A stretch of 64,000 nucleotides of DNA from Candidatus Heimdallarchaeum aukensis (lineage in GTDB: Archaea > Asgardarchaeota > Heimdallarchaeia > Heimdallarchaeales > Heimdallarchaeaceae): positions 2,272,001 to 2,336,000 of the forward strand of contig CP084166.1 in assembly GCA_021513695.1 (NCBI GenBank). Reading direction: 5' to 3'. This document shows positions 11,133 to 59,292 of the stretch, piece after piece. Made by a program: the position numbers and the translations under genes. The notes under the pieces are model-generated. The model did no database searches. It was not told where the DNA came from and was given only the letters and a program-made list of their open reading frames with translations. How positions within the stretch are numbered: the first letter of the stretch is position 1; every line of letters begins with the position of its first letter.

Positions 11133-11209
11133 GGCCTCGTGGCTTAGTTAGGTAAAGCAACGGACTCTTAATCCGTCGATCAGGGGTTCAAATCCCCTCG
11201 AGGTCACCA
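11133..11209 (+). tRNA. tRNA-Lys (anticodon CTT), CCA encoded
   Basis: Hand-folded cloverleaf: acceptor GGCCTCG/CGAGGTC (one G-U), D stem GCTT/AAGC, anticodon stem ACGGA/TCCGT with loop CTCTTAA, T arm AGGGG-TTCAAAT-CCCCT, discriminator A then CCA. Confidence 0.9.
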
Positions 11210-11347: not shown

Positions 11348-11455
11348 GGGCTTGTAGCTCAGCTAGGTAGAGCAGCAGGCTTTTAAGCTTTCTGCGAGCC
11401 ATGCAAAAGCGCTGACACCTGTCGGCCATGGGTTCGAATCCCATCAAGCCCGCCA
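11348..11455 (+). tRNA. tRNA-Lys (anticodon TTT) with about 31-nt intron at canonical 37/38 position, CCA encoded
   Basis: Acceptor GGGCTTG/CAAGCCC, D stem GCTC/GAGC, anticodon stem GCAGG/CCTGT, loop CTTTTA|A split by 11386-11416, T arm ATGGG-TTCGAAT-CCCAT, discriminator G then CCA. Intron AAAAGC can pair with GCUUUU of the anticodon region (BHB-like). Confidence 0.85.
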
Positions 11456-28523: not shown

Positions 28524-28694
28524 TTAATAGCTTTTTTTTTTATTTTTTATAAAGAAATGATATTGCAATTATCAACACAATTTTTAAATGATATGACTAA
28601 ATGATATAAGATAGTAAACATAGAACAACATTTAATATGTTTAACATCATTTAGCATATTAAGGATATGTAAATATATTTGAGGAGAATCAACT

Positions 28695-28994
28695 ATGATT
28701 TCACAAAAACAATTTGAAGAAACTCTGAAAAAGTTAGAAAGCCATCCCAGTGTAAGGGGCGTTATAATAACAAGTAATGATGGCTTACCTATCTCTAGTA
28801 CAAAAAATCTTTCAATAGAAATGCGAGAAAATGTTTCAGCATTAGTAGCTTCATTGGTTGGAAGAGCTAAAGCTGTGGTTAGCGAACTAGAAGAAGGAGA
28901 CTTGAATTTCTTTACTTTAGACACAACAAAGGGTGAGATTCTTGTCGCTCCAGAACAGGATTATGTGTTAATCGTTTTACGTAATAAGCAATAA
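28695..28994 (+). CDS. Roadblock/LC7 (MglB-like) protein
   Basis: 99 aa. [22 protein letters not shown]...[10 protein letters not shown]...[16 protein letters not shown] fits the Roadblock/LC7 pattern. gaggag RBS upstream. Confidence 0.8.
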
Positions 28995-29065: not shown

Positions 29066-29632
29066 ATGAGAAAAGATGCCTCAGGAAAGCAACACTTTAA
29101 GATAGTGTTTGTTGGACCTAGTTTAGCTGGAAAAACAACTTTACTTAGAAGACTCCATTCTGATGTCACAGGAATAAAAAAAGGTGGATTAAACAGTATA
29201 GAAGATCCTTCAGGAAGAACAATTTACTTTGATTTCTCACCTTTTATGGCGACATCAAATGTCATTTTGGATATTTACACAGTGGCTGGTCAAAAAAGGC
29301 ATAGACACCAAAGGGCGTTAGTTTTGAAGGGTGTTGACGGTCTCTTGTTTGTTGCAGATTCTTCAAGAGCGATGTTGGCCGATAATGTCGAATCAGCAGA
29401 AGAATTGAAAAAAGAACTTGGAGACAAATTAAACAATGAGATTCCACTAGTTATAGTTCTAAATAAACGTGATTTGCCAGATGCAATGGATAAACGAGAG
29501 TTAATCGATGCTTTAAATCTTGGAACAAATTTACCAGTTTACGAAACAATCGCCACAGAAGGTATAGGTGTTAAACGCGCTTTTCAGTCCCTAGCTAGAG
29601 AAGTTTTATTAAAACAAGTTTATAACATGTAG
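29066..29632 (+). CDS. MglA-family small GTPase
   Basis: G1 GPSLAGKTT, G3 TVAGQ (Thr in place of Ras Asp, as in MglA), G4 NKRD. 188 aa. Confidence 0.75.
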   Translation: MRKDASGKQHFKIVFVGPSLAGKTTLLRRLHSDVTGIKKGGLNSIEDPSGRTIYFDFSPFMATSNVILDIYTVAGQKRHRHQRALVLKGVDGLLFVADSSRAMLADNVESAEELKKELGDKLNNEIPLVIVLNKRDLPDAMDKRELIDALNLGTNLPVYETIATEGIGVKRAFQSLAREVLLKQVYNM

Positions 29633-41762: not shown

Positions 41763-42404
41763 TTATCCTAAAGGAGCTCCGCAATTTGCACAAAAACTGT
41801 AAGAAGATTTTTGTTTTGCTCCACAATTGTCACAATAGACGAAACTTTCTGTTTTTTTAACAGTCTTTGAGGTGTAGGGTTGTGCATAAGCTGAAGAACT
41901 TGTGGGCGCGCTTGATACTCCAGTTTTTGCAGCTCCACCGTAAGGCTGGTATCCAGTGCTTTCATAATTCGCTGCTCTTATTACAGAACGAATAATTGAG
42001 CCTGCAATTATAAATATGAAAATAAATACAATAATTGGTACTATAAATGAAGTTTCATAAGATGTCGCAAGTGTGGATACAATTATTATTATGAAAATAA
42101 ACGCAATGAACATAAATATAGGCAAAAAGCAGAATCCACTGAAATAATGTCCGTGTCTATAGTGTCTTCGTCTATAATAGGGATAGATACCCCAACCTGC
42201 TCTGTGGTAGTGACGACTACTTGTATGTCTTCGTGTACTTCCAGCTCTTATTAATGAACCACTGGAGCGATGAAATGATCCTCCTCCTCTTGTTATTGAT
42301 CTTCCAAATGAAGAAGAACCTATTCGACTAAACGATCTACCACCAAAGCTTCTAGCTCCGCTGAAGCCTCCACCTGTTCTTGATATTCTTGGCATAACTA
42401 CCAC
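41763..42404 (-). CDS. membrane protein with N-terminal Arg/Gly/Ser-rich low-complexity region and C-terminal zinc ribbon
   Basis: RISRTGGGFSGARSFGGRSFSRIGSSSFGRSITRGGGSF..., two hydrophobic helices, and C-terminal CDNCGAKQKSSYSFCANCG. Confidence 0.55.
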   Translation of the reverse strand: MVVMPRISRTGGGFSGARSFGGRSFSRIGSSSFGRSITRGGGSFHRSSGSLIRAGSTRRHTSSRHYHRAGWGIYPYYRRRHYRHGHYFSGFCFLPIFMFIAFIFIIIIVSTLATSYETSFIVPIIVFIFIFIIAGSIIRSVIRAANYESTGYQPYGGAAKTGVSSAPTSSSAYAQPYTSKTVKKTESFVYCDNCGAKQKSSYSFCANCGAPLG

Positions 42405-42541: not shown

Positions 42542-42873
42542 GCTGAGCTGATAGCAACAGCTAAAGTGGGAAGCTAGGGCTCTCCTGTAACCGGAAACGC
42601 TCTATATGCCGGGCTGAAAACTGCTGCTGAGGGCTCGTCGAGGAAGATACGCTCTGTCTGGAAAGCGTCGAAGCATCGCCCCATGAGATTGTGCACACCC
42701 GAGGCGCCTTTGGAGGAAGGTGTTAGAAGGGTTGAGATCAAAAAGGGTCAGGCACGGAAGTGAGCAGCCCTAAGATCGATGCATGATGCCCATGGCAAGC
42801 GGTGTGGAGCTTAAGGGCAGTAAAACGGCTTCCAAAACGGGTTCGAACAGCAGGCTGCTAAGATTAGTTCAGC
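42542..42873 (+). ncRNA. signal recognition particle (7S) RNA
   Basis: Sharp GC-rich island. Helix-8 motif GGGTCAGGCACGGAAGTGAGCAGCCCTAAG matches the universal SRP RNA core. 5' GCTGAGCTGAT pairs with 3' ATTAGTTCAGC (11 bp, 2 G-U). T6 run at 42883-42888 follows. Confidence 0.85.
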
Positions 42874-42977: not shown

Positions 42978-44132
42978 ATGGTCGTTATGAGTGGATATAG
43001 CCCTACTTGGACTTCAAAAGGCTCTGACAAATTAAGGATCCTTCAAGTCACAAAGATACTAATGAATATAATAGATAGATTGATCAATTCGATTGACGTA
43101 ACTGATGAAAAAACAAGAAATATGGTTGAAGGAATAATAGCGAACACAATTTATAATTATTTTACACCAAACAAAGATTTAGCGATCGAAAAACAGTATG
43201 AATATCTACTAGAATTCTTAGGTTGGAAATTAATTTCTATCGAAAAAAAAGATGATGATTCACTCTCATTAAGTTTAGGTGCAAATCGTTTTATTGATGA
43301 AGAAACAGATAATTTAGCATATAACGCAATTGTTTTAGGCATTGCAAAATCTATTGGATATTTCATTTTCAATAAAGATGTTAAAGTAGAATTGATGGTA
43401 AGTCAGTTTGATTCGACTCAAATAACTGCTCTAATTGAGCGAACTGATAAAGAAATAGCTGTTGAAACTCAAGAAAAGTTAGGTATTCAAATCTCAAAAG
43501 AAGAAGGAGAATTAGGAATCGAACAGAAACAAGCTCCAGCTACCAAAAAAACTCCTGCAATTGAAGTTAAGCCTGAATTAGAATTAGATGTTAAATCTAT
43601 ATTTTCTCCTATTCTTCAGAATTATCCACCCACATCAATTTTGCCTGTATTTCATAAAGTTTTATCTGAAATTGTTACAAGCTTCTTTTCAGAGATTGAA
43701 GACAGTCAAGTAATTAATGCAAAGGCATCGTATTCCGAAATAAACACCGTTTTCTTAATAGAATTTATACTTAGAACCTTACCAACTATTGGAAAAGATG
43801 TGAGTGAGATTGCTACTCTCGCAGGGCAATATCTAATTAAAGCTATACTTACAAAAACACCTGATGATATCATAAAATATTTACCAAAAGAACTTCTTTC
43901 TGAAATCTCTAGACGTGTATCTTATGTTGAATTTGGTGCGCGAGATTATTGTTCTTATGCTCCAGGAGAACGATGTGTTGAAGGGAAAAGAGATTTATGC
44001 GACTTTGTTCTATTTCTTTGGCAAGGAATGTTAGATTCTCTCATTCCTGAAAAAAAATTCAAACTTGGAGAACGCATTCCGGCAACAAGAAGAGGAAAAT
44101 TCTGTTTGGTGGAATTTATAAAACAACAGTAG
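42978..44132 (+). CDS. hypothetical protein with C-terminal V4R-like (TRAPP/Bet3-related) domain
   Basis: C-terminus YCSYAPGERCVEGKRDLCDFVLFLWQGMLDSL...RRGKFCLVEF follows the V4R pattern (C...C-x-F..G...G...G..C..E). The N-terminal half may hold a second degenerate copy. Confidence 0.5.
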   Translation: MVVMSGYSPTWTSKGSDKLRILQVTKILMNIIDRLINSIDVTDEKTRNMVEGIIANTIYNYFTPNKDLAIEKQYEYLLEFLGWKLISIEKKDDDSLSLSLGANRFIDEETDNLAYNAIVLGIAKSIGYFIFNKDVKVELMVSQFDSTQITALIERTDKEIAVETQEKLGIQISKEEGELGIEQKQAPATKKTPAIEVKPELELDVKSIFSPILQNYPPTSILPVFHKVLSEIVTSFFSEIEDSQVINAKASYSEINTVFLIEFILRTLPTIGKDVSEIATLAGQYLIKAILTKTPDDIIKYLPKELLSEISRRVSYVEFGARDYCSYAPGERCVEGKRDLCDFVLFLWQGMLDSLIPEKKFKLGERIPATRRGKFCLVEFIKQQ

Positions 44133-44142
44133 GTGTGAAAAA

Positions 44143-44604
44143 ATGGGTAGAAAAACAATAAAAAAAACATATAAGGATACATATGCAAGAGGACAAGTTG
44201 ATAAAAGTGAATTTCAAGGTAGATATTTTGTTAAAATAGAGCTTGTATCTCTGAAGGTACTGGAAGATAAAGATTTACTTGGAAATGAAAGTGAATTTTA
44301 TTTTAAAGTGGGAAGAATGTTACACAAGCATCGAATTCCTCAGAAAGGTACTATTAATTTAGAGAAAAATGAGGTTTTTCAGCCAACAGATGGGTTGACT
44401 TTATATACACAATTTATTCATAAACCTGAAAGGGGAACAATTGTGGTTCCTTTTCGTCTACGCGAAAGAGATCCATTGAAGGTGGATGACCACATTATTA
44501 AAACTAAGTTATCTATTCCTCTAGGATCTTCTGATTATATAGTTCTGGTAGAAAAATCTGTAAAAGTAAAACTAAAAATTTCAGCTTTGGAAACTCGATA
44601 CTAA
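44143..44604 (+). CDS. hypothetical protein (153 aa), probably all-beta
   Basis: Starts 10 nt after the previous stop, preceded by aggtg. Alternating hydrophobic pattern. No family recognised. Confidence 0.45.
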   Translation: MGRKTIKKTYKDTYARGQVDKSEFQGRYFVKIELVSLKVLEDKDLLGNESEFYFKVGRMLHKHRIPQKGTINLEKNEVFQPTDGLTLYTQFIHKPERGTIVVPFRLRERDPLKVDDHIIKTKLSIPLGSSDYIVLVEKSVKVKLKISALETRY

Positions 44605-44616
44605 AATAACAAATTC

Positions 44617-45828
44617 TTACCATTTATTTTTTTTAAAAATAAATTTCAACCCTGTTTTCATGAAGAAAGGCCAAAGTTCTAATTTTGTTAATAACTTCCA
44701 AACTATGGCCTGTTGATTATCTACATCTCCTTTAGATGTAAATATTTGTTTATACTTTGGTTTATTGAATATTTTTAGTAGATTATCGATGTCTTTGTCA
44801 TCTAAAGAATCTAAATATTGTCTAACAAGCTTCATTATGAAAAGATTTCTAGCAAATTCCTTTTTCCACCTTTTTTCATACTGCTTTAGGAATGATTTTT
44901 TATAATTTTCTTCGATTATTGCTTTTGCAGCTATCTCTCCCGCAATTCTGGCTGCTATACCCCCTAAAATTACACCGCCCCCTGTCGTAGGTTTCGTCTG
45001 TCCTGCTGCATCTCCAACAACTAAGATATTATCAGTATAGCTTCTGTTAATATAAGATCCTAATGGTATCGCTCCACTCATTTCTCTCAAAATTTTTGCA
45101 GAATAAAATCTCTCCTTCAATAGTTCGCTATTTATAAAATTTCTCAAATATTTTTTTGCTGGTCGATATCTAGTTCCTATTCCTACCTTTGCCACACTAT
45201 TGTCTATTGGAATAATCCACCCAAAGAAACCTGGGGCATATTTTGATATCTGATATAACTCCACATATCTTTTATCTAAATTTTCTATACCATCAATTAT
45301 AAATTGCGAAGCAAAGATTATCTCATCAGGATTAGATAATCCGACTTGAGAATTAAGTTTAGGAAATCTTCCTTCTGCTAGAATCGAAACTTTAGTTGTT
45401 ATTCTACTCTCTTTAGCTTGTTTTCCTAACACTAATTCAATATTTTCTGATTTTCTGTGTATATTTTTAACCCTTGAATTTGTTCTTATTTCTATTCCAT
45501 TATCATGTGCAATTGATGCCAAATATCTGTTAAACTTACTTCTATCTACTACAAGTGCATGATTTGAATTTTTTTCAACTACTAACTCTGTTCCATTAGC
45601 AGAAAATATTTTGGCTCCTATTATTTCCTTGTTTTGAATAATTTCTGATGGTAATTTGTTGAGACCTATTTTTTCTAACCCTTCTATACTTAGTAATCCT
45701 GCACAGTGTTCAGTAATTCCTATTTCTTTTTTGGATTCAAGTACTAGAACATCTACATCATATTTACTCGCTTCAATTGCAGATAGTAGTCCAGCTGGTC
45801 CTCCACCAATAACAACGATTTTTTTCAT
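44617..45828 (-). CDS. geranylgeranyl reductase family flavoprotein
   Basis: N-terminal VVIGGGPAGLLSA dinucleotide fold, VVGDAAGQTKPTTGGG. Length typical of archaeal lipid GGR. Confidence 0.8.
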   Translation of the reverse strand: MKKIVVIGGGPAGLLSAIEASKYDVDVLVLESKKEIGITEHCAGLLSIEGLEKIGLNKLPSEIIQNKEIIGAKIFSANGTELVVEKNSNHALVVDRSKFNRYLASIAHDNGIEIRTNSRVKNIHRKSENIELVLGKQAKESRITTKVSILAEGRFPKLNSQVGLSNPDEIIFASQFIIDGIENLDKRYVELYQISKYAPGFFGWIIPIDNSVAKVGIGTRYRPAKKYLRNFINSELLKERFYSAKILREMSGAIPLGSYINRSYTDNILVVGDAAGQTKPTTGGGVILGGIAARIAGEIAAKAIIEENYKKSFLKQYEKRWKKEFARNLFIMKLVRQYLDSLDDKDIDNLLKIFNKPKYKQIFTSKGDVDNQQAIVWKLLTKLELWPFFMKTGLKFIFKKNKW

Positions 45829-45881: not shown

Positions 45882-46805
45882 TTAAAAAGCTAGTTCTAAC
45901 TCATCTACAGCTTTTATTTCATTTTGTTTAATGATGTGCTTTTCCCATGTTTCTGTGTCGATAGCCAACTTTAGAACTTCCTCGAATTCTATTCTTTTGT
46001 TATAGTCTTGAAATATCTCAATAGCTTTGTTTTCATTTTCTTTAATCCACTCGTTAGAAAAATTAGATAGAAATTCAGTAAATATCTGGTAAGCTTTTAT
46101 TTTTTCTTTATTTGTTGTTAAAACGATTGTAAACGCTTTTTCTATTTTTCTAATGAGGACTATGATGTGCTCTGATTCTATTTCAGTTAAATCTCCTAGA
46201 CCATATTGCTGACTCATGTTCAGTATTGCAGAAATAAAAGCGACTAATAAAACAGCATCATAAGGTAAAGATTGGGTAATTAGCAGATACAAAGGTTGTC
46301 CATCTTCATTTGCAATCAATATGTCTAAATCCTTTAGAACCAAGCCAAACGATGTAAATATTTTTTCGTTACCAACTTTTATTTTTTCAATATTTGTTCT
46401 TTTGTTTACAACTAAATTTAGTGATCTCGCAAAATTACTCACTTGCTTTCTCTCATATTCTATAGTCTTTTTATCTTCCATTATGTCATTTATAGAACTA
46501 CTTTTGACCCATGCAAATTGTTGACGAAAGATTTTTACTACTTTTTTGACTACTGTTGAATAATAATCCTTTTTCTTGACGATAACTAAAAAATAATCAT
46601 TTACTGCTTCATAAATAACTTCATTTTCTCCAAAAATGACTTTTTTTGGTATTTTTTCTCCTAATTCTGTAGTAAGTGTTGTCACAGCACTTATGAAACT
46701 TATAAGGGACGCTTTGATTTCCCTGTTAGACCAGGTTCCATGATAGATTCTGTAAAACCTACATGAACCGTTTCTTTTTAGTATCAAAATGGCCTTGATT
46801 AACAC
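45882..46805 (-). CDS. hypothetical protein with two Roadblock/longin-like modules (fold call by eye)
   Basis: MLIKAILILKRNGSCRFYRIY...YFLVIVKKKD and DILIANEDGQPLYLLITQ...AFTIVLTTNKEK resemble the strand-helix-strand pattern of longin/Roadblock domains. Confidence 0.45.
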   Translation of the reverse strand: MLIKAILILKRNGSCRFYRIYHGTWSNREIKASLISFISAVTTLTTELGEKIPKKVIFGENEVIYEAVNDYFLVIVKKKDYYSTVVKKVVKIFRQQFAWVKSSSINDIMEDKKTIEYERKQVSNFARSLNLVVNKRTNIEKIKVGNEKIFTSFGLVLKDLDILIANEDGQPLYLLITQSLPYDAVLLVAFISAILNMSQQYGLGDLTEIESEHIIVLIRKIEKAFTIVLTTNKEKIKAYQIFTEFLSNFSNEWIKENENKAIEIFQDYNKRIEFEEVLKLAIDTETWEKHIIKQNEIKAVDELELAF

Positions 46806-54057: not shown

Positions 54058-54132
54058 GGGGTAGTAGTCTAGTGGTATGACAACGCCTTCACGCGGCGTA
54101 GGTCGCAGGTTCAATTCCTGCCTACCCCACCA
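54058..54132 (+). tRNA. tRNA-Val (anticodon CAC), CCA encoded
   Basis: Acceptor GGGGTAG/CTACCCC, anticodon stem ACGCC/GGCGT with loop TTCACGC, T arm GCAGG-TTCAATT-CCTGC, discriminator A then CCA. Confidence 0.9.
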
Positions 54133-57847: not shown

Positions 57848-58441
57848 CTATCTAATGTATATCTCTCTAAATTTCAAAACCTTTTCTTCACTTTGGATAG
57901 CTAATCTTGCAGCATGAGAAAAAAGTTTTTCAACATTTTCAGATGATAATGCAGATGTTTCTATATAATCAAAATTATTTTCTTTTGCATATTCTTCTGC
58001 TTTTTCTCTGTCTACAGCTCTTGCATTTTTTAGATCACTCTTATTTCCACATAAAATAATTGGAATTTCTGAACATTTTTTCTTTATTTCACTAACCCAA
58101 AAGGATACATCATCAAATGTTGACGTTTTAGTAATATCATAGACTACGATAGCAACTTTAGCTCCTAGAAAATATTTTTGTCTAACAAATCCAAAAATTT
58201 CTTGAGCTCCTGTATCCCATAAACTAATTCTAACATTAACATCATCGGTGAGTATATTTTTAGACAAATTTTCATTTAATTCGTCCTTTGTTAAGGAAAG
58301 ACTTTTCGTTAACCAACTCACACCCATTGTTGGGATATAAGAATATGAGAAAGTGTTCATAGCATATCTTCTTGCCAATGATGTTTTTCCTACAAAAGCT
58401 GAACCAATTGTTATAATTTTATACAAATGTCGTTCTATCAT
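57848..58441 (-). CDS. Rab/Ras-like small GTPase with variant G3 motif
   Basis: G1 GSAFVGKTS, switch I YIPTMGVSW, G3 WDTGAQE (canonical DTAGQE), G4 GNKSD, G5 ETSAL. No C-terminal Cys. ATG at 58441 preferred, 2 nt after the upstream gene's stop. Confidence 0.8.
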   Translation of the reverse strand: MIERHLYKIITIGSAFVGKTSLARRYAMNTFSYSYIPTMGVSWLTKSLSLTKDELNENLSKNILTDDVNVRISLWDTGAQEIFGFVRQKYFLGAKVAIVVYDITKTSTFDDVSFWVSEIKKKCSEIPIILCGNKSDLKNARAVDREKAEEYAKENNFDYIETSALSSENVEKLFSHAARLAIQSEEKVLKFREIYIR

Positions 58442-58443
58442 TT

Positions 58444-59292
58444 TTATCTCCAAAATATTTCTATTAGTTTTCTTTCTATGTTGATACTGCTTAAACGCCT
58501 CCAATCATCGAGAATCAAAGGCTTTGTATTCGTATTGATTAATTCTCTAAACTGTTCTGGTTCAAAATACTTACTAGTGATATCAACAAATTCTGAAATG
58601 AAATTAAGGAATGTCTCCTTTATTTGGCTATAATCTTCAATTTCTGTTATTTCTGTTGAGTTTACTTCATCTCTTATAAAGAACCCTTCTTTGTCAAAGA
58701 AAAATAACTCGTCAATTTTTTTGTAATCATTTATTAATTTATTAACATCATTTCTTAGTAACTGATTAATTTTTTTCCTTTTCGATTGATCTTCCACAAC
58801 TTTTTGTATTCCTGAACATACTGAATTTATTATATTCTCAAATATTTCTAATAAATTTCTGAACTCAATATCTTTGATGTGATTAGATATAATAGCGTTC
58901 ACTTTGAAAACTTCGGAAATCACCATAGATGGCGATAAGGGTTTTTTTACTTGTTTAATTTCATCAAGGAAATTTTTAGCAGTTTCTTTATCATAGATGT
59001 CAAAAGAGTATAGAAAGAGATTCATTAAAAAGAATAATTGAGAATACGCCATTCCTTCTTTTTGCTCTTGGGAGATTAGTACAAATATGAAATCATACTT
59101 CTTTTCAACTAAAACAATTGTTTTCTTAAAAATTATTTCTCTTAATGGTCCTAATTCTCTTTGTTCTCCCATCTTTATGAATTTTAATAGTTCCGCAAAT
59201 TGGTCAGGTTTAAGAATTAAATTTTCACTATTAGGCGTGTCTGTAAAGATAGTATCGTAGTTATTTTTGTTGAGTATGTAAAAATTAACCAA
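58444..59292 (-). CDS. hypothetical protein, N-terminal longin/Roadblock-like module; candidate GTPase partner
   Basis: 282 aa. MVNFYILNKNN...KTIVLVEKKYDFIFVLISQEQ...SQLFFLMNLFLYSF. Tightly coupled to the downstream GTPase. Confidence 0.5.
   Translation of the reverse strand: MVNFYILNKNNYDTIFTDTPNSENLILKPDQFAELLKFIKMGEQRELGPLREIIFKKTIVLVEKKYDFIFVLISQEQKEGMAYSQLFFLMNLFLYSFDIYDKETAKNFLDEIKQVKKPLSPSMVISEVFKVNAIISNHIKDIEFRNLLEIFENIINSVCSGIQKVVEDQSKRKKINQLLRNDVNKLINDYKKIDELFFFDKEGFFIRDEVNSTEITEIEDYSQIKETFLNFISEFVDITSKYFEPEQFRELINTNTKPLILDDWRRLSSINIERKLIEIFWR

Follow-up and report, generated by a model that had tools for sequence, protein, structure and literature searches.

A conserved pair of genes in Heimdallarchaeaceae

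We analysed a stretch of 64,000 nucleotides (nt) from the genome of Candidatus Heimdallarchaeum aukensis (contig CP084166.1, positions 2,272,001 to 2,336,000), hereafter called the window, and within it a pair of adjacent genes at 42978-44132 and 44143-44604. The first open reading frame (ORF A, family A) encodes a protein of 384 amino acids (aa), and the second (ORF B, family B) a protein of 153 aa. Residue numbers of ORF A count from the 384-aa frame, and the coordinates of all features are collected in Table 1. Both frames, the 10 nt between them and the AGGTG ribosome-binding site had been pointed out in an earlier sequence-only reading, and all are present as described there. ORF A probably starts at the second ATG, at position 42987, which would give a protein of 381 aa, because all homologues begin with MSG[YF]SPTWT. 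Database searches returned 68 homologues of ORF A at E ≤1e-3, down to 21% identity and all from Heimdallarchaeota metagenome-assembled genomes (MAGs). For ORF B, 26 homologues were found by single-sequence search and 51 by profile search, down to 37% identity, the closest match being 94% identical. The homologues of both proteins are all annotated as 'hypothetical', and a precomputed Pfam domain is attached to none of them except one truncated B fragment. ORF A and ORF B are real genes, conserved well past chance.

The loci of relatives, designated by L numbers, comprise 30 loci from a scan of GTDB species genomes for family A, together with distant A-like and B-like loci. L026 and L029 are a single partial match split across two contigs of one MAG, and adjacency was counted on the 28 informative Heimdallarchaeaceae loci. 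A is followed by B in 26 of them, and this pairing was found in Heimdallarchaeaceae only. The spacer of the window (44133-44142) is preceded and partly overlapped by a motif resembling a Shine-Dalgarno (SD) sequence, and most related loci have a similar AGGTG(A)-like motif ahead of ORF B. The same strand, the 10-nt spacer, the SD-like motif and the kept adjacency support a two-gene unit in the window genome, in agreement with the operon that had been proposed. The spacer measures 10-11 nt in the window's genus (the window and L001, whose locus is collinear with it), 48-134 nt elsewhere and 844 nt in L013. In roughly ten loci (L002-L011), a TATA-like box, TATATAAG, lies about 40 nt before the ORF B ATG, within spacers of 120-134 nt. 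Because of the long spacer and this box, co-transcription of A and B is not assured in these relatives.

The N-terminal peptides of both proteins are near-invariant yet predicted to be disordered. Residues 4-20 of ORF A (42987-43037) follow the pattern MSG[YF]SPTWTxKGSDKLR in 36/36 sequences, in a region of predicted disorder, while residues 1-20 of ORF B (44143-44202) form the conserved basic peptide MGRRVVKKVYKxTYARGQ. These two peptides may serve as partner- or membrane-binding motifs.

ORF A is predicted to contain two domains of the Bet3/V4R fold

An AlphaFold2 model of ORF A was built from a 36-sequence alignment, with a mean predicted local distance difference test (pLDDT) of 79.8. It consists of two domains, both predicted well, joined by a linker that is predicted to be disordered. 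In the N-terminal domain of the model, the order of the four helices and four strands is of the Bet3/V4R type. The C-terminal domain is modelled as a helical layer followed by a strand, a cysteine-rich loop, a helix and a final hairpin, so that the order of elements suits the Bet3/V4R fold in both domains. The two-layer alpha/beta architecture of the Bet3/V4R/H-NOX group, with about four helices packed on a 4-stranded antiparallel sheet, is found in the model. Structure matches, with figures as listed, were obtained with YslB (10.1), yeast TRAPP Trs31 (10.1), BcsD (9.8), the MJ1460 V4R protein (9.7), the DmpR sensor domain (9.0), TRAPPC5 (8.9), the PoxR sensor domain (8.8), Trs33 (7.7), H-NOX (7.6), Thorarchaeota TRAPPC3 (7yh2; 7.5) and Bet3 (7.3). 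The assignment of the predicted structure to the Bet3/V4R fold appears robust, because Foldseek independently put the same set of folds on top (Trs31, TPC6, Trs33, H-NOX, BcsD/AxCeSD, MopR and YslB; E 1e-3 to 3e-2; target-normalised template-modelling (TM) score ≤0.64). These matches do not place ORF A measurably nearer to the TRAPP subunits of eukaryotes than to the prokaryotic proteins that share the fold. The V4R/Bet3 likeness suggested for the 384-aa protein is thus borne out at the level of the predicted fold, including the proposed Foldseek comparison with Bet3, Trs and V4R structures, but not at the level of the family, since Pfam V4R and TRAPP_Bet3 do not match the window protein. The presence of two such domains goes beyond what had been proposed.

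Sequence comparisons gave weaker signals pointing the same way. Pfam V4R matched 2 of 22 family A members, both of them distant, below its gathering score (E 0.034 and 0.037; 14.6-14.7 bits against a cutoff of 31), in both cases with profile positions 13-57 on the C-terminal segment CDF...W.G.L...FC.EF, and the helices preceding this segment were matched by Pfam HNOB in one member (E 0.1). When the C-terminal domain was aligned by hhalign with the verified DmpR, PoxR and MopR sequences, C341 and C376 fell on the V4R cysteines, in an alignment that was not significant (P 0.09; 15/100 shuffles as high). The N-terminal domain aligned marginally with verified human TRAPPC3 (P 0.038; 1/100 shuffles) in the register beta1-beta2-alpha3, with LSLGANRF on LILENNPL; the C-terminal domain against the same protein gave P 0.43. 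A HMMER search of PDB sequences with the family A profile returned nothing meaningful, the profile searches of PDB giving matches at chance level such as Fli1, ribosomal protein L1 and GFP.

The C-terminal domain carries the only cysteines of ORF A, at positions 325, 333, 341 and 376. C325, C333 and C341 are each kept in 73/74 family A members and C376 in 74/74, within a strongly conserved C-terminal motif that reads C333...C341-D-F-V-L-F-L-W-Q-G ... G-K-F-C376-L-V-E-F; the C-terminal pattern on which the V4R proposal had been based is therefore present. The spacing is C-x7-C-x7-C-x34-C. The AlphaFold2 model places the cysteines at three sites: the loop that follows the first strand, the beginning of a helix, and the last strand. 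In Thor-TRAPPC3 and PoxR, a cysteine cluster that ties the sheet to a helix binds Zn and helps to form the cavity for a hydrophobic ligand; the Thor-TRAPPC3 site has four cysteines, its Zn was identified experimentally, and its crystals were reported to be pink (PMC10933270). By analogy, the four-cysteine cluster of ORF A is predicted to be a structural metal site, probably for Zn.

ORF B is predicted to resemble a C2 domain

ORF B was predicted by AlphaFold2 (pLDDT 76.7, predicted TM score 0.70) to form a beta-sandwich of eight strands with type II strand order, which bears out the earlier guess of a beta-sandwich and makes it more specific, as the connectivity found is that of an 8-stranded antiparallel C2 domain. 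Structure matches, with figures as listed, were obtained with C2 domains of cPLA2 (9.4), a diatom protein (3w56; 9.0), perforin (8.8), E-Syt (C2A; 8.7) and Munc13 (8.4), at 7-18% identity between ORF B and C2 structures. Two loops of ORF B occupy the positions of C2 Ca2+-binding loops 1 and 3. The first spans residues 40-51, LEDKDLLGNESE, and the plant C2 protein 1wfj aligns with it as LVSAKGLEDADFL; the second has the sequence ERDPLKVDD. Conservation was counted over 27 diverse members from the Heimdall, Kari, Loki and Odin lineages. Position 44 is D in 24/27 members, E51 is kept in 27/27, position 108 is acidic in 27/27, and D110, D115 and D116 are kept in 27/27, 26/27 and 23/27, respectively. 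By sequence position alone, ORF B thus carries in loops 1 and 3 acidic residues that correspond to the Ca2+ ligands of the Ca2+-dependent class of C2 domains.

Family B was also aligned by hhalign with a C2 reference of four sequences, each of which had been matched to its own PDB entry over its full length at about 2.1-2.2 bits per residue. The alignment covered 85-87 columns (P 0.05; 6/200 column-shuffled controls as high). Its register puts D44, E51, E108, D110 and D116 of ORF B on D172, D178, D230, D232 and D238 of Syt1, and it brings the invariant motifs of family B onto the Ca2+-binding loops of C2, pairing LEDKDLLGNESEFYFKV of the family with LPALDMGGTSDPYVKV of the reference, NLEKNEVF with LNPVFNEQF, and ERDPLKVDDHII with YDFDRFSKHDIIG. 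The same two Ca2+-loop motifs are picked by 1wfj, a stand-alone plant C2 protein that was the second-ranked PDB match of the family B profile (E 0.48, not significant), and Pfam C2 itself matched one of the 27 members (E 0.13). No match of ORF B to Pfam or NCBIfam, C2 included, appeared even at E ≤10, and the PDB matches of the family B profile all had E >0.4. Homology of ORF B to eukaryotic C2 domains is likely, though not proven, and the predicted C2-type fold has a plausible Ca2+/lipid-binding tip.

These values also leave room for a convergent 8-stranded beta-sandwich, which would not be a C2 homologue and would have another role, for instance in protein-protein interaction. Beta-sandwiches recur by convergence, and the missing family matches, the profile-profile P of about 0.05, the PDB matches above E 0.4 and the low identity to C2 structures speak for it. 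On the other hand, three independent weak sequence signals pick C2, with the same register on the two Ca2+-loop motifs, and the acidic positions have been kept across four Asgard lineages. We therefore regard convergence as a minority possibility that deserves some weight, and it concerns ORF B only.

Distribution of the families and linkage to a geranylgeranyl reductase gene

Families A and B differ in their range. A search of 1.84 billion cluster representatives with the family A profile returned 21 proteins from Heimdallarchaeia, the weakest cluster being from Hodarchaeales, and no bridge to annotated V4R or TRAPP proteins was found among these representatives. The loci of the GTDB scan were labelled Heimdallarchaeota in all but four cases (L026 and L029, from a Thorarchaeota MAG; L004, 'Promethearchaeati archaeon'; and L028, 'archaeon'). 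Family A is confined to Heimdallarchaeia, and family B is broader, extending to Kariarchaeaceae, "Promethearchaeota" (Loki) and Odinarchaeota at 37-52% identity. No B-like neighbour was present at six distant A-like genes and no A-like neighbour at six distant B-like genes.

The best-conserved neighbour of the pair, which had gone unremarked before, is a gene for a flavin adenine dinucleotide (FAD) enzyme of the geranylgeranyl reductase (GGR) family, a lipid-saturating reductase, which scores 189 bits with TIGR02032 of NCBIfam (cutoff 158.8). It adjoins A in 28/28 informative loci, in two orientations. GGR is usually convergent and follows B. In L024, from which B has been lost, it comes directly after A, and in L027, where B is also absent, it precedes A and points the same way. 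In the window's genus, one flank of the block comprises the signal recognition particle (SRP) RNA, a membrane protein with a Zn ribbon, and TtuA, while the opposite flank has a longin-like protein followed in our listing by an ABC transporter. In other genera, one flank holds ArcTGT, a radical SAM enzyme, a histidine kinase of the GAF-PAS type and aEF-1beta, and the opposite flank two small genes of no known function. As the flanks on either side change from genus to genus, no unit other than the A-B-GGR block is conserved.

GTPase, Roadblock and longin genes

The sequence-only reading had placed the pair in a context of GTPase, Roadblock and longin genes and suggested testing whether a TRAPP-like component belongs to the same regulatory set. 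The context is real, as all these genes are encoded in the window, the longin-like match being weak; the suggestion itself was not supported. The GTPase and Roadblock genes of the window lie about 13-14 kb from the pair, and none of them is syntenic with it in other genera. Across the 30 related loci, hidden Markov models built from Roadblock and GTPase neighbours detected neither a Roadblock nor a small GTPase gene in the 8 kb on either side of the pair, and none of the conserved neighbours (histidine kinase, aEF-1beta, ArcTGT, radical SAM enzyme and GGR) gave a longin or Roadblock signal. The 307-aa longin-like protein was rejected as a conserved partner, since it is restricted to the window and L001, and the genes that take its place in other loci (92 aa and 232 aa) show no relationship with it. 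An unannotated ORF of 282 aa at 58444-59292 on the reverse strand, with no Pfam match, overlaps the 5' end of the Ras-family GTPase gene.

A different picture was seen at the distant A-family loci from other Heimdallarchaeia and Hodarchaeales. A Roadblock gene lies within 4 kb in 4/6 of them, adjacent and divergent to the A-like gene in L032 (Hodarchaeales) and L034, and a Ras/Arf-like GTPase gene is present in 2/6 (L033 and L034). The Roadblock-GTPase pair of the window is related to the pair that lies divergently beside the A-like gene of L034. These distant Roadblock loci are not all independent, because three of them share other synteny. Their arrangement is suggestive for the wider family and does not apply to the window's clade. 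Genes of the GHMP-kinase and PPS_PS families flank the distant A-like genes in L031 (7150-8832), L033 (6148-7836) and L034 (2550-4086), and are probably the archaeal pantoate kinase/phosphopantothenate synthetase pair of coenzyme A synthesis; L033 also contains a Rce1-like CPBP protease. GTPase adjacency was rejected as a pattern for B-like genes, being seen at one of six distant loci and absent in the other five. At that locus (L039, 2030-4405, Kariarchaeaceae), a heliorhodopsin gene on the reverse strand is followed by the B-like gene and an Arf/Ras-like GTPase gene, both on the forward strand. Alpha/beta-hydrolase genes adjoin B-like genes in L040 and L042.

Table 1. Features of the gene pair and of its surroundings (positions in the window).
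Feature	Positions	Strand	Description
ORF A	42978..44132	+	384 aa, acidic pI (isoelectric point) 5.1, soluble; from ORF list and sequence
ORF A N-terminal domain	43020..43442	+	Residues 15-155; helix, helix, helix, beta-hairpin, helix, beta-hairpin (AlphaFold2)
Inter-domain linker	43443..43589	+	Variable, low-complexity, indel-rich; residues 164-193 with pLDDT <50, predicted disordered
ORF A C-terminal domain	43590..44120	+	Residues 205-381; predicted helical layer and 3-stranded sheet; V4R-like C-terminal motif
Four-cysteine cluster	43950..44105	+	C325, C333, C341, C376; codons TGT 43950, TGT 43974, TGC 43998, TGT 44103
SD-like AGGTG	44131..44135	+	Overlaps the TAG stop of ORF A, 7 nt before the ORF B ATG; from sequence
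ORF B	44143..44604	+	153 aa, basic pI 9.7; predicted stand-alone C2-like beta-sandwich, type II strand order
ORF B loop 1	44260..44295	+	Residues 40-51; position of C2 Ca2+-binding loop 1
ORF B loop 3	44464..44490	+	Residues 108-116; position of C2 Ca2+-binding loop 3
GGR-family FAD enzyme	44617..45828	-	Convergent with ORF B, 12-nt spacer; Pfam GGR_cat, FAD_binding_3
Weak longin-like 307-aa protein	45882-46805	-	N-terminal matches to Clat_adaptor_s (E 6e-4) and Intu_longin_1 (E 8e-3); adjoins GGR on its upstream side
Archaeal SRP RNA	42554-42861	+	Rfam RF01857, 114.8 bits; directly upstream of ORF A
Roadblock/LC7	28683-28991	+	Followed by the Arf/MglA-like GTPase gene
Arf/MglA-like small GTPase	29066-29632	+	Downstream of the Roadblock gene
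Ras-family small GTPase	57848-58504	-	Pfam Ras E 1.6e-45

Other features of the neighbourhood

The SRP RNA gene was considered as a functional partner of A and rejected, the adjacency being shared with the closest genome, L001, only. The Zn-ribbon protein beyond it (41763-42404, reverse strand, 213 aa) combines an N-terminal region rich in Gly, Ser and Arg with a hydrophobic stretch and, at its C-terminus, a zinc ribbon. In most Heimdallarchaeaceae, a conserved protein of 335 aa is encoded some 4 kb upstream of ORF A (L015 4014-5045, reverse strand, with equivalents in 22 loci); its Roadblock/longin-like appearance by eye was unsupported by Pfam and hhalign. Elsewhere in the window, a tRNA match extends over 105 nt (11348-11452, forward strand) and is probably an intron-containing tRNA, with ordinary tRNAs at 11133-11206 and 54058-54129.

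A possible membrane-peripheral module

Our preferred but tentative interpretation, which we put forward with less than even confidence, is that this Heimdallarchaeaceae-specific gene pair encodes a membrane-peripheral module, in which A and B would act together at the membrane in a process linked to isoprenoid lipids. ORF A would be a soluble acidic chain with two Bet3/V4R-fold domains, an intramolecular version of the dimers in which this fold usually occurs. Its C-terminal domain would be stapled by the four-cysteine metal site, probably with Zn, shaping a cavity for a hydrophobic ligand as in Thor-TRAPPC3, PoxR and proteins related to them. ORF B would dock onto an anionic membrane, possibly in a Ca2+-dependent manner, and bring ORF A to the membrane or hold it there. 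ORF A could then bind a hydrophobic ligand of the lipid or isoprenoid type, or scaffold a partner at the membrane. An isoprenoid membrane lipid is proposed as the ligand, or as the process that A and B would serve, because the linkage to GGR is strict and resistant to rearrangement. The analysis shows the two genes with their conservation and synteny, the predicted folds, and the conserved cysteines and acidic residues. We infer metal, ligand and membrane binding, the interaction between A and B and the link to lipids.

Several points weigh against this interpretation. All structure of A and B is predicted. Each fold match of ORF A spans about 115-140 residues, that is one domain, and the output does not say which of the two. 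No internal similarity between the N- and C-terminal domains is detectable (hhalign E 0.14), so that a 'tandem repeat of one domain' is not claimable from sequence. ORF A gave no match in Pfam and NCBIfam, V4R and TRAPP_Bet3 remaining without a match even at E ≤10, and the sequence-level links of both proteins are sub-threshold (hhalign P 0.04-0.09). The phyletic ranges of A and B differ and each is found elsewhere without the other; therefore neither strictly needs the other. In the loci with a long spacer, transcription of ORF B may start separately. Because GGR runs towards the pair from the opposite strand in most loci, it does not share a transcript with A and B there, and short spacers alone might keep it adjacent. 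Finally, the distant relatives of A are not beside GGR, and lie near Roadblock/GTPase genes instead.

An alternative, in line with the earlier reading, is that the pair is a TRAPP-like regulator of GTPases, which we consider unlikely. A would be the equivalent of a Bet3-Trs31 or Bet3-Trs33 dimer, recruited by B, with longin/Roadblock partners and a Rab-, Arf- or MglA-like target. The structurally sensible register of the N-terminal domain on TRAPPC3 (P 0.038) fits this idea, as do the Roadblock genes near four of the six distant A loci, the GTPases of L033 and L034, the kinship between the Roadblock-GTPase pair of the window and that of L034, and the single Kariarchaeaceae B-like gene that precedes an Arf/Ras-like GTPase gene. 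However, the 30 Heimdallarchaeaceae loci have no Roadblock or GTPase gene within ±8 kb, the nearest in the window being about 13-14 kb away, and a conserved longin partner is lacking, as the weak longin-like gene is confined to the genus of the window. The guanine nucleotide exchange factor (GEF) surface of TRAPP is built mainly by longin subunits, not by Bet3-fold subunits. Furthermore, the fold of ORF A is equally close to prokaryotic V4R, YslB and BcsD, TRAPP_Bet3 does not match it, the Roadblock loci are partly interrelated, and Asgard genomes are rich in Roadblock genes. A TRAPP-like GEF role for ORF A is not established.

Alternatively, A and B could be neighbours unrelated in function: A a cytosolic V4R-type sensor or carrier of small molecules, as the sensor domains of DmpR/PoxR or BchJ, and B an independent Asgard beta-sandwich, their adjacency and that of GGR being an inherited synteny kept by short spacers. 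That each family is widespread without the other, that TATATAAG is a possible promoter of B in many loci, and that A is kept without B in L024 and L027 all agree with this view, and ligand binding is, according to Tran et al., the probable role of the Asgard TRAPP/V4R proteins (PMC10933270). Against it, the A-B-GGR block is the sole part of the neighbourhood common to the window's genus and other genera, in the genus of the window the spacer has shrunk to 10-11 nt, with the SD motif overlapping the stop codon, and the A-GGR adjacency survived an inversion or transposition in L027. On balance, mere neighbourhood seems to us an improbable account of the pair.

The GGR of Methanosarcina reportedly uses a ferredoxin encoded next to it, which counts in favour of a redox role for A. 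A rubredoxin-like, redox-active Fe centre at the four-cysteine site, making A an electron donor or partner of GGR, would agree with the 28/28 adjacency (including the co-directional GGR-A arrangement of L027), the conserved cysteines and the pink crystals of Thor-TRAPPC3, but it is very improbable, as Zn was found experimentally in Thor-TRAPPC3 (PMC10933270), C-x7-C-x7-C-x34-C fits no known iron-sulphur (Fe-S) or rubredoxin motif, and distant A relatives that share these cysteines lack GGR as a neighbour.

The membrane-peripheral module can be extended further, to a possibility that we regard as a long shot: family B would be a true archaeal C2 homologue, Ca2+/lipid-dependent and present in Heimdall, Kari, Loki and Odin lineages, and in Heimdallarchaeaceae would form with A a primitive, membrane-recruited TRAPP-core-like platform acting on membrane lipid or small GTPases. 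In eukaryotes, few membrane-targeting modules are as common as the C2 domain, which is regarded as essentially eukaryotic. If the extension were true, the C2-like family would be a new eukaryotic signature protein, Ca2+/lipid-regulated membrane docking would predate eukaryotes, and the A-B platform would be a testable precursor of eukaryotic membrane-trafficking machinery. The two proteins and one enzyme also offer a small soluble system for learning the role of archaeal precursors of the TRAPP-core fold, which might be to handle ligands or lipids at membranes or to regulate GTPases. The C2-like family gives the pair a moderate to high interest, which is tempered because the structures are all predicted and the sequence links are sub-threshold.

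Comparison with known systems

Asgard proteins of the Bet3/V4R fold with Zn sites are already known, including a longin-TRAPPC3 fusion in Heimdall (PMC10933270). A close parallel to ORF A is Thor-TRAPPC3 (PDB 7YH2; Tran et al. 2024, PMC10933270), another Asgard protein in which a four-cysteine metal site, of a kind also predicted for ORF A, ties the sheet to a helix and for which binding of a hydrophobic ligand has been proposed. With about 156 aa, Thor-TRAPPC3 consists of one domain and forms a homodimer, whereas the model of ORF A has two unlike domains in one chain, joined by a linker predicted to be disordered. ORF A has no detectable sequence similarity to Thor-TRAPPC3 and is paired with C2-like and GGR genes.

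The eukaryotic subunits Bet3/TRAPPC3, Trs31/TRAPPC5 and Trs33/TRAPPC6 act as dimers of Bet3-fold units, which the tandem arrangement of ORF A could mimic. ORF A differs from this family by the lack of a Pfam TRAPP_Bet3 match and of conserved longin partners or GTPase neighbours in its clade. It also keeps its cysteines, whereas the cysteine metal site is replaced by a hydrogen bond in mouse TRAPPC3 (PMC10933270). With the V4R proteins (PF02830; MJ1460, 2OSO; DmpR, PoxR, MopR; BchJ), ORF A shares C-x6-W/G-x-G ... E ... G-x-x-x-C in register, a likeness below every significance threshold. In ORF A, however, another residue stands in place of the middle V4R cysteine, a loop contributes two additional cysteines, and no AAA+ or DNA-binding output domain is attached.

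The searchable literature yielded no account of a C2 domain encoded by an Asgard archaeon. ORF B differs from known C2 domains in that it is archaeal, shows no significant sequence similarity to them and has a conserved basic N-terminal extension, MGRRVVKKVYK. It resembles type II C2 domains (cPLA2, PLC-delta) and the small plant C2 proteins (1WFJ; OsGAP1, 4RJ9) in the acidic residues at the Ca2+-loop positions and in its basic character, and it shares with the plant proteins a single domain of about 150 aa. In its two-domain form, ORF A is a new variant of a fold already known from Asgard archaea, and the combination of a tandem Bet3/V4R-fold protein with a C2-like protein and GGR appears undescribed.

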